Shown here one piece after another: positions 54,708 to 64,000 of a stretch of DNA of 64,000 bases (position 1 is its first letter; every line of letters begins with the position of its first letter). The DNA is from Acidobacteriota bacterium (lineage in GTDB: Bacteria; Acidobacteriota; Blastocatellia; RBC074): positions 26,380 through 90,379 of the forward strand of contig JANPFP010000066.1 of the NCBI GenBank assembly GCA_031423495.1. Direction: 5' to 3'. The notes beneath the pieces were generated by a model. The model did no database searches. It was not told where the DNA came from and worked only from the letters and a program-made list of their open reading frames with translations. A program made the position numbers and the translations under genes.

Positions 54708-54718
<11 letters not shown>
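53807..54718 (-). CDS. TonB C-terminal domain protein (energy transducer-like), with signal peptide
   Basis: Signal or TM segment [25 protein letters not shown] and a C-terminal TonB_C-like region [23 protein letters not shown]...[16 protein letters not shown]. An 11-nt overlap with the metH stop. Confidence 0.55.
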
Positions 54719-58400
<3,682 letters not shown>

Positions 58401-58432
58401 TATGACTCCAAATAAGAAACAGTAATTCTATT

Positions 58433-59752
58433 TTATTTACGCTTTGTGTAGTGTTTGTCGAACTCTTTCAAGATTTCCATACTGTAAAATTTCTGTTGTG
58501 ATCCCTTTTTCTCGATCACATTCAGGTAATTTATGCGGCAAAATCTGCCTAGATGTTTTTCTTGATCTTCAAGCTCTTTCTTGATTTTGTGAAAACGGTT
58601 ATCAGGCCTGAAGTTGATATACCTGTCTTTGAGTTTTTCTACTAAAGCAGCATACGTTAGTGGGTATTTGTTCTTAAAAATGCTCTCTTCCGAAACTCGA
58701 ATTTCAGGAGCTTCTGGATTATCTGTGTAGCGAACATCCAATGCTTGTGCGGTTGAACTTGCTTTCACGAAATGAGTTTGGATTCTTAAAGTAATGTTGT
58801 AGGACGCACTTGCATCTGAAGGATATTGATCTTCGACGGACTGAAAATGCTTTAGGATGTTTTCGATCTGTTTATCACTATGTAAGATAGAATGGCTTTC
58901 GATATCCGTTACGTGGAAAAACGACATCGGCATCAAATAGAAGTTGTATTGCGAGAGGTCTTTATCAAACCATTCCCCTACGGCTGTCACATAATTGCTC
59001 AACCCCGCCGTACCGACTTCTTGGATTTTGCGATTCAGGTTTTTGCTTTTGTTTATAAAGTGAATGGCGTTGTCACGTATTTCCATCAATAAACTAATAT
59101 TTTCTCGACATCTAGCATCAAGCAATTTTTGGTCAACAAGCTGTTGCAGTGCATAGTTAATATCAATTGTCAGCGGATTTCCTGCTCTATTAAGCTTGGT
59201 ATTTCCTTCTTTATCTGTGGCTTGAATCGATCGAATATCGTTATCGTTGATCGCTAATATCTTAGCTTTAAGCAAAAGTTCCCAAGCATTGACCAACAAG
59301 ATGGAAAAAGTTTCCTCGCGGTACTTGAAATCGGGCTTGTTATAGATTTCTATTGCCGAAACGCAGGCAGCTACTGACTTCTCAAGAACAGCTTTCAACC
59401 TTCCTTTAATTTCAGCTTTTGGTTTTTTGTAACCTACAACACTCCGACACGTCTCCCCCTTTGCATTTTTGAAAAGATAGTTATTGCCTTTTCCGTCACC
59501 TTTGAAAATAAATCCATCTTTTCTCAAATCCCGAATTAACCCTGCGGGCTGTGAGCTAATGCGTGCAAGTTCTTCTGTCGTCGCCTCTCGCTTATACGTA
59601 AGAATAAGGAAAGCCATTTTCTTTGAACTCGCTTTAGGAAAGCAATTCAGGGAAAGAATGGTTTCATCCATCGCAGGATTCTGAGATAAGGAGTACTCTC
59701 TAACACATTGCCTCACTACTTTTTTAACTAAATCAAGCTGCTGAGTAGTCAT
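58433..59752 (-). CDS. Low-GC (about 40%) 439-aa protein with an N-terminal winged-helix-like region and a HEPN-type Rx4H motif (MEIRDNAIHF); Abi-like candidate defence protein
   Basis: GC content drops sharply. Motifs AIEIYNKPDFKYREETFSILLVNAWELLLKAKIL and EIRDNAIHF (R-x4-H). Confidence 0.55.
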   Translation of the reverse strand: MTTQQLDLVKKVVRQCVREYSLSQNPAMDETILSLNCFPKASSKKMAFLILTYKREATTEELARISSQPAGLIRDLRKDGFIFKGDGKGNNYLFKNAKGETCRSVVGYKKPKAEIKGRLKAVLEKSVAACVSAIEIYNKPDFKYREETFSILLVNAWELLLKAKILAINDNDIRSIQATDKEGNTKLNRAGNPLTIDINYALQQLVDQKLLDARCRENISLLMEIRDNAIHFINKSKNLNRKIQEVGTAGLSNYVTAVGEWFDKDLSQYNFYLMPMSFFHVTDIESHSILHSDKQIENILKHFQSVEDQYPSDASASYNITLRIQTHFVKASSTAQALDVRYTDNPEAPEIRVSEESIFKNKYPLTYAALVEKLKDRYINFRPDNRFHKIKKELEDQEKHLGRFCRINYLNVIEKKGSQQKFYSMEILKEFDKHYTKRK

Positions 59753-59866
59753 TTGCGTCTTTCCTGATTTTGCCTATTCGACCTGTGGGGCGTGGCCCCT
59801 ATTCATTTTCAGCCATTCCGGCAAGTCAGAGACTTGCCGCACATCACTGCGGCAAAGCCGCAGCAA

Positions 59867-60112
59867 TCACGCTTGCCTCAATTCTTCCAGCGTGAGTAAG
59901 TCCGCTTCAAAATCAGCCACGCCATAATGGATGGGAATGTCGCGGCTGCCCAGCAGTTGTTGGAACTGCCACTGGCTCATTCCGGCCAAACGGCTGGCTT
60001 GTCCGAACGTGAGCTTTTCACGTTGAAACAAGGCCAGCGCCAGTTCTTGTATTAACTCGGCTGCCGTCAGCCGAGTTGATTGCACGATCTCATCTGCAAT
60101 GACAATGCTCAT
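59867..60112 (-). CDS. UPF0175-family antitoxin-like protein (81 aa)
   Basis: LTFGQASRLAGMSQWQFQQLLGSRDIPIHYGVADFEADLLTL matches the UPF0175 consensus (…G.P..Y..EDLEED). Confidence 0.6.
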   Translation of the reverse strand: MSIVIADEIVQSTRLTAAELIQELALALFQREKLTFGQASRLAGMSQWQFQQLLGSRDIPIHYGVADFEADLLTLEELRQA

Positions 60113-60345
60113 TGTTTAACCTCCGTGTTGTTGGCGTCTCCTGCCAGTTCGCGTAAGTCCGCCAGAAAGAGCGGATCGTTCATGGCATCGCGCATCGCCG
60201 CTAGCTTGTCAGTGTCTGGCGTACGCAAGGTGACTTCCATCTTTGCGCCTTCGGTCAATGCCAGCGGTTGCAACGGGCGCAACAGCCCTTGTTCGTAAAT
60301 TACTTCAACGATCATCGTCATCGTATTTACCTCTTTCTTCAGCAA
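60109..60345 (-). CDS. DUF104 / AF2212-like antitoxin-like protein (78 aa)
   Basis: MTMIVEVIYEQGLLRPLQPLALTEGAKMEVTL matches the PF01954 consensus (IxAVYENGVLKPLEPLDLPEG). Confidence 0.6.
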   Translation of the reverse strand: MLKKEVNTMTMIVEVIYEQGLLRPLQPLALTEGAKMEVTLRTPDTDKLAAMRDAMNDPLFLADLRELAGDANNTEVKQ

Positions 60346-60572
60346 GCGGAAGTCTTCAAAATTTTCGGCGTGTATGAGTCAGCTTCAAAATCAGCCACGT
60401 CGTAATGCGTATCCTGCTGACTTGGCAATGACGGCGGTAACGCCGCCGCAAATTGTCGCTGGAACTCAACCGCTCGCGCGATGATTTCTTCCCAGTCATT
60501 TCCAGCTTCGGCTTCGATAATCAGGCGTTGTTGACGCACTTCTTTCACGATTGGGTCTTCCCACATTGTCAT
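60339..60572 (-). CDS. Small protein (77 aa) sharing the C-terminal HY[DG]VADFEAD motif with the UPF0175 gene; a paralogous antitoxin-like protein
   Basis: MTMWEDPIVKEVRQQ...THYDVADFEADSYT. The track ORF (160 aa) overlaps the AbiEii gene, so the shorter form is taken. Confidence 0.4.
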   Translation of the reverse strand: MTMWEDPIVKEVRQQRLIIEAEAGNDWEEIIARAVEFQRQFAAALPPSLPSQQDTHYDVADFEADSYTPKILKTSAC

Positions 60573-60579
60573 ACCTCTA

Positions 60580-61254
60580 TTAACTGAGCAGCAATAACTC
60601 ATCTCCGAGCGTTTGCAATTCTGCCAAAAAACTCTCGCAAGCAGGTGGCTCAATCCAGCGCACGGCTTCCCAATCAGCTTGCGTGGTTTGGCATAAACGA
60701 CGAGCGAGGTCAGCCGGATAGATGCCGGAAGATTTGCTTTGCGCTCCGCTGAGGGCAGCGCGTAATGACAAACCGAGCTTGCCGCATAAGCCCCAGACAT
60801 CGGCCACGTCACGCGGTTCATCGCGTCCGATCAAGGCGGTTAATTTATTTGCCAGAATGTTTTCGGGGCTGTCTATGCGTCCGAGTTCGGGGTAGCGCGG
60901 ATCAACCTGAGGTGTGCCGACGCGCGAGCCTACGTCGTTAATCATCTCTATTTTTAGCGTCAGGTCATCGCGTAACAACAAGGCGCGCACGAAATATTGA
61001 TCTTTCAATACGACTTGCGTTTGCCAGCGGTCTTGCCGTTCCAATGCATCAACGATGCGCTCGGCCCATAGGCCGAAACGATCATCCCAATTGACGAACA
61101 AATCGAGATCGTCAGAGAACCGATGATGCAAATAAGCCCGCGACAACGCCGTACCGCCCGTTAGATAGAAATCGGTTTCAACCGCGTTGATGACCGACAG
61201 CGCCTCGTCTTGAAAAGGATAAAGATGGTCGTAGTAATAACTGCTATCTTCCAT
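60580..61254 (-). CDS. AbiEii/AbiGii-family nucleotidyltransferase (type IV TA toxin-like, DUF1814)
   Basis: FYLTGGTALSRAYLHHRFSDDLDLFV and KLTALIGRDEPRDVADV signatures. Confidence 0.65.
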   Translation of the reverse strand: MEDSSYYYDHLYPFQDEALSVINAVETDFYLTGGTALSRAYLHHRFSDDLDLFVNWDDRFGLWAERIVDALERQDRWQTQVVLKDQYFVRALLLRDDLTLKIEMINDVGSRVGTPQVDPRYPELGRIDSPENILANKLTALIGRDEPRDVADVWGLCGKLGLSLRAALSGAQSKSSGIYPADLARRLCQTTQADWEAVRWIEPPACESFLAELQTLGDELLLLS

Positions 61255-61558
61255 CTTCTGCCTCCTTGAGTAATTCAGCCAGTAATTCAGGATGATGTTT
61301 GGGAATCCATTCGACGACGAAATCCAAACCGCGTCGTTGCGATTCAGCCCGCACCCGCGAACGCCAATGCGGCCATTCGCGTACCAGCGCCGCGAAGCCG
61401 ATCTTGCGAATCATCTCGTCGTAACTCGCCCATTCGATCAGACGCACCGCCGCCCAGTCACGATCGAGCTTTCCGCGCCGCAACTTTCCGCTCAACAACG
61501 CGTCGAACTCTTCCTGACTCAGATCGTAATCCCAAACGTATTTCGCGCGATTCGTCAT
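61244..61558 (-). CDS. Hypothetical 104-aa protein translationally coupled (11-nt overlap) to the AbiEii-like gene; possible cognate partner
   Basis: Protein-like ORF; operon context. Confidence 0.4.
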   Translation of the reverse strand: MTNRAKYVWDYDLSQEEFDALLSGKLRRGKLDRDWAAVRLIEWASYDEMIRKIGFAALVREWPHWRSRVRAESQRRGLDFVVEWIPKHHPELLAELLKEAEDGR

Positions 61559-61583: not shown

Positions 61584-62027
61584 CTAAACCAGTTCTTTCT
61601 GTCGTATCACCATCCGATAAATGCGCATCAACTTGAGCCGGACTTCGGCATCTTTCTCTCCATAAACATCGGTGTGGGCGCGATTGATGTTGGGAGGTTC
61701 TGCGTCTGGTTGATAGATCGGCGTATGCACTACGGTTTGTTCGGGTATTTGCCTTACGTCTTCGACCTTGAGTTGAATCACCGCATTGTCGTGGGGATTT
61801 CTGGCGCGGTTGCGGCACGCTTCCGGCGACGAATACTTTTTCCAATCTGTAGACATTCCGTCGGTTGATTGCGGGCGATTTCTGAAAGCGCCGGGGAACG
61901 GTTCACCGTCTGCGTCGAGTTGGTTTTTATGCACCCGCATGAAAAGCAGCGCGTCATCGGGGATTGGTTCTTTTGCCCAGACCGGCGGAGTCTCATGGTT
62001 TATCGGGTCAGCCATAGCAAGATCCAT
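61584..62027 (-). CDS. Hypothetical protein (147 aa)
   Basis: Protein-like ORF; overlaps the upstream ORF by 28 nt. Confidence 0.4.
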   Translation of the reverse strand: MDLAMADPINHETPPVWAKEPIPDDALLFMRVHKNQLDADGEPFPGAFRNRPQSTDGMSTDWKKYSSPEACRNRARNPHDNAVIQLKVEDVRQIPEQTVVHTPIYQPDAEPPNINRAHTDVYGEKDAEVRLKLMRIYRMVIRQKELV

Positions 62028-62422
62028 TCGTTGGGCAGAGCGGTATTGAGTTTCCCTTTCACGGCGTCTTGCGCATCGCCTGTGCCGTAATAGTCCGCCG
62101 GGTTTTCAGCGCGTTCGGGGATATTGATCAGCAACTCACGCTCCGCCGTGCGCCAGTGCAAATCAATACTGCCTTCTGGGCCGGGCAGGATGCGCGGCGG
62201 TTCAATCCAAACGCCGAAGCGTTGTTGAAAGGCCAGAGCCGCCAGTTTCACAAACTCAGTCGCGCGCCGCCAAGTGGTTTCCCGAAAGCTCGGACTGCCT
62301 TCTTCATCCCAATCGTCCGGCAAATCGAGAATGCGGCGCGATGCGCGCAAGGCTTCAGCCAGCGTTTGGTTCAGCGGAATTTGATGGATCGTCTCGACAA
62401 CCATAATGTTTCGTCCTCTCAA
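62000..62422 (-). CDS. Hypothetical protein (140 aa)
   Basis: Protein-like ORF, 18 nt downstream of the large upstream gene. Confidence 0.4.
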   Translation of the reverse strand: MRGRNIMVVETIHQIPLNQTLAEALRASRRILDLPDDWDEEGSPSFRETTWRRATEFVKLAALAFQQRFGVWIEPPRILPGPEGSIDLHWRTAERELLINIPERAENPADYYGTGDAQDAVKGKLNTALPNEWILLWLTR

Positions 62423-62439
62423 TATTTACCGGCTCATTT

Positions 62440-64000
62440 TTACACACGCGGCATCCCGTATCCCACCAAGTGCGCCGCCTTGCGAAACGCTTCTTCGTCA
62501 TTTTCTTTCACGGTCAGATGTTTGTCGCCCGCGCGCAGGCACAGCTTCTTCGTCCGCTCGTGCGTAGCCAGCAATTCAGCCAGTTCCGCGTTGGCGCATT
62601 CGATCAACAGCGCCGTGCCTTTTTGTTTTAACGCGCGCGCATTGCGTTCGGTAGTGATGAAAAAGGCGATGACCGTATCGGGCAATTCCTGTTCGTCGCG
62701 CGCCGCGAGGAATTCGCGCAGTTCAGTGAGGTTGCCGCCGTTCTCGACTGCGTTAAAAGCCTTGTCGCGGTCGAGCCGCCAAACGCTATCAGATTCTTTT
62801 TCGGCCCAGGTTTCGAGCAACAGGGCTTCGTCAAGCGAAAGGTTGGCGACGTTGACTTGCAAGCTGGGCAAGACGTTCACCGTCGCTTTGGCTTCGATGC
62901 CGGCGGGCGTGTAACTCTTCGTTAGTTCAAGGCAATAAGCGCCGAGCGCGTTCACGCGGAAGTAAAGCAAGCCGTCGTAACGGCTGAGAAAACTCAGATC
63001 ATCAACGCCCCACATGTCTGTGAAATCGTCGCGCGCGTGTTCGGGGTCAACATAGGCTACGTCAATCAGCCCTAGCGTGGCGGCGTATTCAAACAGCAAG
63101 GCCATCAGGTAACGCGCTTGCAAAATTTCCCAGCCGTCGTTGCCGCTATTGCTGAGGTTGCCGTAATTGGCGTCAGCGACATAGAGCGTCCACGAGCTGC
63201 GCGTAATTTCGAAGTCGAGCGCCGCCGCTTGCATGTACCGCGAAAAATCATCGAACTTGACCCACGCGCCGACGGGGCAATGTTTGAGGGCTTCGTCAAT
63301 GACGGCGCGGCGCGATTCGATGGCGGTCATGTGGCGTCCGCTTTTGCTTTGCTGGCCTTTGATGGCGTCTACGCGGCTGAACTCATCAAGCAGCTTTGAC
63401 TTGAGCCAGCGTTGCCAGAGCAGCTTCAGCGTTTCAGCGGGCGGCGCGCTCAACGCGGCGCGCCCGGTTTTGGTGAGCGCAAGTTTCTTGCTTTGCAGTT
63501 CGGCCAGCTTGCCTGCTTGCAACAACAGCGGCCAGGCAAAGGCTTTGAACGGGCCGACCTCTTGTTCCCACTTGCTCTCTTTGGGCAGCCATCCGTAAAA
63601 ATCGCCGTCGCGCAACATTGTCGTAATCTCTTTCATCGTCGCGGCTGAAGCCTGAAAGGTTTTTTCGCTGACGGCGAGCTTGCCCTTTTCGATCAAGCGC
63701 AACAGCGTCAACAAGTCTTGTGTGGCGGCGCGTTCGGTTTCGCGGCGTGTGATCGCAATTTGATGAACGACTTCACGCATCTTGGTCGGCTGGCGATATT
63801 CATACGCGCGATTGCCTGAGAGGTGAACGATCTTTTGCGCGTTCTCGTCAACGTCGTATTCCTGCTCAATGCGTTCAACGAATTCCGGCACGGCTTCGAC
63901 GGATTGCAGCCGCAAGCCTTCCGGCTTCGGCACGAATTCGAGCAAGCGCGTTCTCAAGTCATCCGGCACGATGGAGTCGTTGGCGTTGGAAAAAAGAAAC
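62440..64000 (-). CDS. Large hypothetical protein, N-terminally truncated by the window edge; possibly a helicase-associated (PF13625-like) accessory domain protein, with no Walker motifs
   Basis: The frame stays open to the window end beyond the track's GTG start. There are no NTPase motifs. The C-terminal region (LTELREFLAARDEQELPDTVIAFF) resembles helicase-associated domain proteins. Confidence 0.45.
   Translation of the reverse strand, partial: FLFSNANDSIVPDDLRTRLLEFVPKPEGLRLQSVEAVPEFVERIEQEYDVDENAQKIVHLSGNRAYEYRQPTKMREVVHQIAITRRETERAATQDLLTLLRLIEKGKLAVSEKTFQASAATMKEITTMLRDGDFYGWLPKESKWEQEVGPFKAFAWPLLLQAGKLAELQSKKLALTKTGRAALSAPPAETLKLLWQRWLKSKLLDEFSRVDAIKGQQSKSGRHMTAIESRRAVIDEALKHCPVGAWVKFDDFSRYMQAAALDFEITRSSWTLYVADANYGNLSNSGNDGWEILQARYLMALLFEYAATLGLIDVAYVDPEHARDDFTDMWGVDDLSFLSRYDGLLYFRVNALGAYCLELTKSYTPAGIEAKATVNVLPSLQVNVANLSLDEALLLETWAEKESDSVWRLDRDKAFNAVENGGNLTELREFLAARDEQELPDTVIAFFITTERNARALKQKGTALLIECANAELAELLATHERTKKLCLRAGDKHLTVKENDEEAFRKAAHLVGYGMPRV

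Follow-up and report, generated by a model that had tools for sequence, protein, structure and literature searches.

A DUF3644 (PDC-S19) HEPN protein beside metH in an acidobacterial genome: a candidate anti-phage or anti-mobile-element ribonuclease

Introduction

The window analysed here is a 64-kb stretch (64,000 nucleotides) of contig JANPFP010000066.1 from an Acidobacteriota bacterium, and our subject is the gene of a 439-aa protein located on its minus strand at positions 58433..59752, next to metH. The protein is a member of the DUF3644/PDC-S19 family, with a central HEPN domain preceded by a winged helix-turn-helix (wHTH) and followed by a family-specific alpha/beta domain. Altogether, the gene most likely encodes a self-contained, single-gene HEPN ribonuclease (a predicted activity) working as an anti-phage or anti-mobile-element effector, a reading to which we give a probability of about 0.65. 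An initial sequence-only reading had already singled it out as a candidate defence gene, and this proposal gains support from the PDC-S19 match and from the presence of homologues in restriction-modification (R-M) operons, defence islands, a phage satellite and plasmids, the defence phenotype itself being a prediction.

The open reading frame (ORF) is complete, with 439 codons and a stop, and begins with an ATG at a position shared by its homologues; a Shine-Dalgarno-like AGGAAAG (59759..59765, minus strand) lies 6 nt before it. The feature was initially taken to extend to 59866, a span that corresponds to the ORF plus the 114-bp intergenic spacer at the 5' side of the gene. A protein identical to the one in the window is present in public data (P0001).

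Family membership and the HEPN domain

The sole Pfam match of the 439-aa protein at E<=0.1 is DUF3644 (PF12358), which covers aa 122-309 (58826..59389, minus strand) and positions 2-182 of the 183 in the profile, scoring 168.2 bits where the curated gathering threshold is 27.6 (E=1.8e-49). The PADLOC model PDLC04954 of PDC-S19 reaches further, from aa 118 to aa 438 (profile positions 5-328 of 330, E=5.1e-112), and eight additional, weaker PDC-S19 models also match. NCBIfam gave no match for the protein or for seven of its neighbours, and the protein did not match the Abi_2, AbiV or HepT-like families of Pfam. The original suggestion of an Abi-like HEPN ribonuclease is thus supported, with DUF3644, one of the families named for checking, as the direct match, although the protein is not a member of Abi_2.

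A search of a large database, in which 8000 candidates were scored, yielded 2740 homologues at E<=1e-3, divided by length into one class of about 440 aa carrying an N-terminal extension and another of about 330 aa consisting of the core alone; most members of the family lack the wHTH. Conservation was followed in two alignments, one of 43 hand-picked homologues spanning both classes and another of 119 homologues. The sequence-only reading had pointed to EIRDNAIHF (aa 224-232) as an Rx4H HEPN-type motif and had made its conservation among homologues part of the test of the idea. By itself the Rx4H pattern is weak evidence, since chance alone would give about 0.5 matches for such a size and composition (our own estimate), and it is conservation that gives the motif its meaning: R226 (codon 59075-59077) and H231 (codon 59060-59062) are found in 100% of the sequences of both alignments. 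The motif RDNAIH (R226-H231; 59060..59077, minus strand) is thus predicted to supply the catalytic residues of an RNase, by conservation and by analogy with the defence protein HEC-08 (see below).

The stretch AIEIYNKP...AWELLLKA (aa 133-163), noticed before as preceding the motif, turned out to be a strongly conserved block. Its family-specific part lies in HEPN helices 1-2 at aa 134-162 (IEIYNKPDFKYREETFSILLVNAWELLLK; 59267..59353, minus strand), where I134, Y137, N138, P140, R145, E147, L152, N155, E158 and K162 are present in all 119 homologues and K139 and Y144 in 99% of them. The invariant residues in the alignment of 43 sequences are I134, Y137, N138, K139, P140, Y144, R145, E147, N155, E158 and K162. 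The fold of the HEPN domain is a four-helix up-and-down bundle that resembles solved HEPN domains. A Foldseek comparison of the full protein model with the PDB returned nothing at E<=0.001, and a sequence-profile search of the PDB with the whole DUF3644 family nothing significant. From the fold and the motif we predict a metal-independent RNase activity for the protein.

The flanking domains

As the sequence-only reading had supposed, the N-terminal segment (aa 1-116; 59405..59752, minus strand) folds as a wHTH, a probable DNA-recognition module by fold and profile homology. A sequence-profile search of the PDB with this domain gave nothing significant, the best match being SlyA/MarR at E=0.23. 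A profile of the domain run against 1.84 billion representative proteins retrieved 76 proteins, about 50 of which (P0127-P0190 group) are 230-350 aa long and carry the N-domain followed by an HNH-type module (consensus LEIDHRxP...TNxxKRExCxxC...CxGCFW), the remainder including long-form DUF3644 proteins. The N-domains of the two groups are clearly homologous, with an hhalign probability of 99.9% (E=5.9e-33, 35% identity over 111 columns). No Pfam model exists for the N-domain of the wHTH-HNH proteins; the Pfam ICEA family of NlaIII/IceA restriction endonucleases matches 10 of 46 of them, weakly and only in the C-terminal part. In each of the three genomic contexts retrieved for wHTH-HNH genes (L082, L087, L088), a C5 DNA methyltransferase (MTase) gene comes immediately before the wHTH-HNH gene or overlaps it, and in one of them a D12 MTase gene comes after it as well. 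These loci are apparently type II R-M-like operons, and their proteins type II restriction enzymes. This homology with NlaIII/IceA-like HNH proteins, whose genes adjoin those of C5 MTases, suggests that the N-domain is probably a DNA-recognition module, which would be joined to an HNH DNase in some proteins and to a HEPN RNase in others, both activities being predicted.

The C-terminal region (aa 310-439; 58436..58825, minus strand) forms a family-specific alpha/beta domain, included in the PDC-S19 models and lying outside Pfam DUF3644, which occurs in every member of the DUF3644/PDC-S19 family. Neither a profile search of PDB sequences nor Foldseek provided a match for it. No residue of this domain is invariant in the 43-sequence alignment and none exceeds 89% identity in the 119 sequences, where a search for a PD-(D/E)xK pattern across the region found none. 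In the same 119 sequences identity reaches 94% at D265, and the residue is acidic at position 283 in 91%, basic (K/R) at 330 in 94% and acidic at 356 in 89%. After the HEPN domain only one cysteine is moderately conserved (C405, 75%) and there are no CxxC pairs. In the AlphaFold2 model the C-terminal region is confident for aa 355-439 only, and confidence is low over aa 272-291 and 326-353.

Genomic contexts of the family

The genomic surroundings of the family were surveyed in 80 loci from many phyla, with upstream neighbours recorded for 73 homologues and downstream neighbours for 67. The distribution of DUF3644 proteins is patchy and crosses phyla, and their genes have a lower GC content than their flanks in 69 of the 71 loci longer than 6 kb (median difference -0.083). 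Upstream neighbours are often co-oriented and only 1-30 bp away, and they abound in R-M components; among them are ResIII (10 cases), Eco57I (8), Methylase_S (7), N6_N4_Mtase and SWI2_SNF2 (3 each), and D12 MTase, TIR, Schlafen and HNH (2 each); HsdM, HsdS and Eco57I appear downstream. NTP_transf_2 was seen once among the 67 downstream neighbours and is not among the upstream families listed above.

The long forms offer a varied panorama. One gene lies inside an HsdM-HsdS-X-HsdR operon (L086) and another has an HsdM-HsdS-HsdR cluster at a distance of 1.6 kb (L085); one adjoins GmrSD, Fic, PIN and HicB genes (L093), two immediately follow a D12 MTase gene (L005 and L054), one sits amid transposase genes (L094), and one stands alone amid metabolic genes with no R-M gene (L095). 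More distant homologues were also found in Streptococcus phage satellites, placed between integrase and cI, and on plasmids. No single partner gene is conserved across DUF3644 loci, so the protein looks self-sufficient.

An AT-rich gene in a conserved slot

The nearest relatives of the window gene come from metagenome-assembled genomes of Acidobacteriota and Blastocatellales. Orthologues 67-70% identical to the window protein occupy the same position beside metH in three of the loci studied (L003, L083 and L084), where a homocysteine S-methyltransferase/methylenetetrahydrofolate reductase gene and a Helicase_C_3 gene are followed by the DUF3644 gene and then directly by metH. Between syntenic genomes the identity is 78% for metH, 86% for the yitJ-like gene and 65% for Helicase_C_3, and 67-82% for the DUF3644 gene.

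The sharp GC drop relative to metH described in the sequence-only reading was recovered in numbers: GC is 0.391 and GC at third codon positions (GC3) 0.405 in the DUF3644 gene, against 0.558 and 0.682 in metH (54708..58400) and a GC of 0.569 for the whole window, and the profile goes from 0.53-0.59 over metH to 0.36-0.42 over the gene and back to about 0.5-0.55 upstream. In every syntenic genome the gene shows a GC3 of 0.40-0.50 versus 0.68-0.74 for its neighbours. The DUF3644 gene is thus foreign by composition, while the shared metH slot and the neighbour-like identities indicate that it is not a recent arrival. The horizontal acquisition initially suggested therefore fits the composition of the gene, although not as a recent event, since at least four related genomes carry it in this slot. 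Two histories would account for the pattern, the upkeep of AT-richness in the gene or a repeated refilling of the slot. A gene with a GC3 about 0.25 below that of its neighbours, kept in one slot across genomes in which those neighbours are 65-86% identical, bears on how AT-rich defence genes are kept.

At the junction with metH, 32 bp (58401-58432) separate the stop codon of the DUF3644 gene from the GTG start of metH, which has a GGAG 7 nt before it, and the equivalent junction in L084 is similarly tight (38 bp). Neither a riboswitch nor a typical promoter would fit in such a gap, which makes it probable that metH is either co-transcribed with the DUF3644 gene or driven from within this AT-rich gene. 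A sigma-70 promoter scan of 58300-60500 gave 0 sites, a result that is uninformative for an acidobacterial genome.

Proposed mechanism and alternative readings

In HEPN enzymes, dimerisation joins two Rx4H motifs into one metal-independent RNase site, and the 439-aa protein would be expected to dimerise in the same way. The flanking domains would hold this RNase in a latent state until an invader cue, possibly DNA read by the winged helix, triggers it, and the activated protein might then cleave RNA (tRNA, rRNA or mRNA), halting growth or infection. Of the two flanking domains, the C-terminal one would be the likelier core sensor or regulator because it is universal in the family, and the winged helix would be an accessory module of the long-form subfamily only, with a possible role in DNA sensing, tethering or autoregulation. 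We favour such a dimerising, latent RNase because of the established biology of HEPN enzymes and because HEC-08, a DUF3644 HEPN protein, loses phage defence when the histidine of its Rx4-6H motif is mutated (Payne et al. 2024, bioRxiv 10.1101/2024.01.29.577857).

A more daring version, which we hold only tentatively and regard as rather unlikely, is that the long forms are 'restriction-like RNases'. In such proteins, mostly devoid of a cognate methyltransferase, the winged helix from NlaIII/IceA-like HNH enzymes would read the sequence or methylation of invader DNA and activate or tether the HEPN RNase. If true, restriction-type DNA sensing and an RNA-cleaving output would be combined in a single polypeptide.

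Several observations weigh against a single-gene defence effector. A slot beside metH kept in at least four related genomes is unusual for defence cargo of fast turnover, and a phmmer search of the 64-kb window for type I, Dam and C5 R-M genes found none. The autoregulation of its own promoter would account for the wHTH equally well. With respect to HEC-08, in which zinc-finger-like domains come after an N-terminal HEPN domain (a comparison made by description only), the window protein has a central HEPN domain, a wHTH before it and a cysteine-poor alpha/beta domain after it, and hence a different C-terminus. Moreover, a full-text search of the literature library used retrieved no paper mentioning PDC-S19, and consequently no published phenotype, and a search for PF12358 found nothing either.

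The alternative that survives best, although we judge it improbable, keeps a defence role for the protein and changes its target: its main targets would be plasmids or other non-phage elements, whose loss it would promote like Ishtar1 and Ishtar2, instead of causing abortive phage infection. Ishtar is described as a single-gene system with a HEPN (DUF4145 or DUF3644) and a small beta/alpha C-terminal domain that blocks RP4 conjugation in A. baumannii (bioRxiv 10.64898/2026.07.06.735840), and its overall architecture of one gene with a HEPN and a small C-terminal domain, in variable regions and satellites, is similar to the one seen here. The likeness, however, holds at the superfamily level only: the YNKP and IRDNA motifs are absent from all the Ishtar homologues listed in Table S3 of that work, the DUF3644 family profile aligns with an Ishtar homologue from the table at an hhalign probability of just 0.3%, and two Ishtar homologues have no Pfam DUF3644 match. 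For these reasons membership in Ishtar (ist1/ist2) was ruled out.

PrrC of the PrrC/EcoprrI pair is a back-up RNase linked to R-M, and the DUF3644 proteins could follow a similar logic, being silenced by an R-M complex or by host methylation and freed when restriction fails, with the window copy as an orphan. The many homologues that lie within type I/IIG R-M operons or are tightly linked to them, 1-30 bp from the next gene, the D12 MTase genes directly upstream in L005 and L054, and the N-domain in common with the HNH nucleases of R-M-like operons all agree with this idea. Against it, type I, Dam and C5 queries detected no R-M gene in the window, R-M genes are missing from the syntenic loci L003 and L084 and from L095, the loci do not share any conserved partner family, and the ORF nevertheless stays intact at 67-82% identity across those genomes, which argues that the protein functions alone. 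We see slightly less chance for this explanation than for the previous one.

Fewer chances still are left for a wHTH transcription factor whose HEPN is a non-catalytic domain binding a ligand or a partner, as in MtlR, or for a housekeeping RNA-processing factor co-expressed with metH. An invariant Rx4H surrounded by polar residues is typical of catalytic HEPNs, the wHTH is missing from most of the family, and the patchy spread across phyla, the anomalous GC and the association with R-M genes and satellites also speak against both. The weakest candidate, a toxin neutralised by the UPF0175 (or AF2212-like) small protein encoded immediately upstream on the same strand, could appeal to the lack of a cognate PIN toxin in the window and to the HEPN toxins of HEPN-MNT modules, but is hardly credible: on either side of the DUF3644 gene of L083, UPF0175 is paired with DUF3368 (PIN-like) and so belongs to a different module, L003 and L084 have no UPF0175 beside the DUF3644 gene, the families that recur as neighbours of the 73 homologues do not include UPF0175, and a REP-like repeat (see below) stands between both genes in the window, so that UPF0175 was rejected as antitoxin.

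Neighbouring cassettes

The sequence-only reading had placed the gene downstream of a toxin-antitoxin (TA)-like cluster, and family matches confirmed it. Upstream of the DUF3644 gene and on its same strand we find a UPF0175 gene (59867-60112), an AF2212-like gene (60109-60345) and an AbiEii nucleotidyltransferase gene (60580-61254), so the immediate neighbours of the DUF3644 gene are UPF0175 and metH, with AbiEii 0.8 kb upstream. The cassettes around the gene are variable among related loci, with UPF0175+DUF3368 pairs, AbiEii or a Y1 transposase gene, and the syntenic loci L002, L003 and L084 lack AbiEii. The two antitoxin-type genes, AF2212-like and UPF0175, overlap by 4 bp with no toxin gene after them, and in L083 DUF3368 genes follow the UPF0175 genes; in the window, the REP-like repeat may occupy the place of a toxin gene that has been lost.

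Other ORFs complete this region. One of 104 aa (61244-61558) overlaps and precedes the AbiEii gene; it has no family match and is far shorter than typical AbiEi antitoxins. The same ORF is retained in L002 (202-513) with 84% nucleotide identity, and there REP repeats and a Y1 transposase gene replace AbiEii. Two overlapping ORFs separate the Helicase_C_3 gene from the AbiEii module, 62000-62422, with a weak PADLOC PDC-M32A match (E=8.8e-6), and 61584-62027, with no match, which may form a further small defence or TA cassette. The Helicase_C_3 ORF itself (62440-63969) aligns from residue 132 of the 641-aa L003 orthologue (65% identity), so its true start is probably beyond the end of the window and the GTG listed for it likely wrong. 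Helicase_C_3 was considered as a functional partner of the DUF3644 protein and discarded, since it is adjacent in the syntenic clade only and in 1 of 73 neighbour sets.

A REP-like repeat in the upstream spacer

Three hairpins had been proposed to separate the gene from the TA-like cluster, and they are indeed there, as a block at 59787..59867 (minus strand) that starts at the UPF0175 stop codon, with stem-loops at about 59843-59867, 59819-59839 and 59787-59799. The spacer folds with a minimum free energy of -49.3 kcal/mol (z = -3.5), and none of 200 shuffled sequences folds as well. The block is one copy, the only one in the window, of a dispersed repeat resembling repetitive extragenic palindromic (REP) elements. 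In L002, whose DUF3644 protein is 94% identical to that of the window, five copies in both orientations occur within 1.3 kb (588-664, 1214-1297, 1435-1510, 1620-1697 and 1782-1860), and two inverted ones flank a 182-aa Y1_Tnp/IS200-like gene (L002:673-1221). In the middle stem the sequence varies from copy to copy, but the changes are compensatory and pairing stays perfect (CGGCAAGTC...GACTTGCCG versus CGGAAGGGC...GCCCTTCCG). The repeat is also present in three metagenomic contigs with unrelated flanks (L096-L098). An Rfam search of 58200-60400 gave only a sub-threshold snoRNA match, which we took as chance. The inverted copies around the Y1 gene of L002 look like an arrangement of REP and REP-associated tyrosine transposase (RAYT), and they suit it better than an integron attC array, an option that came into question because ist1 lies among attC sites.

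Comparison with known systems

DUF3644 corresponds to the EC042_2821 family of HEPN proteins, which was classed in 2013 together with its wHTH, REase and ZnR fusions and its presence in R-M operons; the C-terminal domain of EC042_2821, of about 180 aa, was described as a novel restriction-endonuclease fold (Anantharaman et al., PMC3710099). The protein of the window shares with this family the conserved Rx4H, an N-terminal wHTH (present 'in some' members, according to that work) and homologues in R-M operons. The C-terminal domain of its subfamily, which may or may not have that restriction-endonuclease fold, gave no fold match, and no PD-(D/E)xK-type invariant residues were found in it. The window gene also differs in lying outside any R-M operon, R-M linkage being a tendency of the family and not a strict criterion. 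A search for EC042_2821 of E. coli by way of the DNA of a Pantoea homologue matched nothing in the genomes of that species.

PDC-S19, a single-gene 'phage defence candidate' of PADLOC, is matched over nearly its full length, with models of about 330 positions that lack the N-terminal wHTH, and as no published phenotype was found for it any member would be a reasonable candidate for a first experiment. HEC-08, the DUF3644 protein with a histidine-dependent defence, was found embedded in another defence system (bioRxiv 10.1101/2024.01.29.577857). Minimal HEPN toxins (HepT/SO_3166, AF0298) and HEPN defence RNases (Csm6, AbiV, the C-terminal domain of AbiA, HepS) are only 8-16% identical to the window protein, which unlike them has no MNT antitoxin partner, CARF domain or reverse transcriptase. 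The NlaIII/IceA-like HNH proteins have a homologous wHTH N-domain, joined in their case to an HNH effector beside a C5 MTase gene and in the window to a HEPN with no MTase, and this shared wHTH gives a concrete idea of how one subfamily of single-gene HEPN effectors could sense invaders.

Altogether, defence candidates of the DUF3644/PDC-S19 kind were already known, and the window gene adds a member from an Acidobacteriota (Blastocatellia-like) genome. The modest new observations are the link between its N-domain and the NlaIII/IceA-like HNH proteins and the syntenic persistence of such an AT-rich gene.

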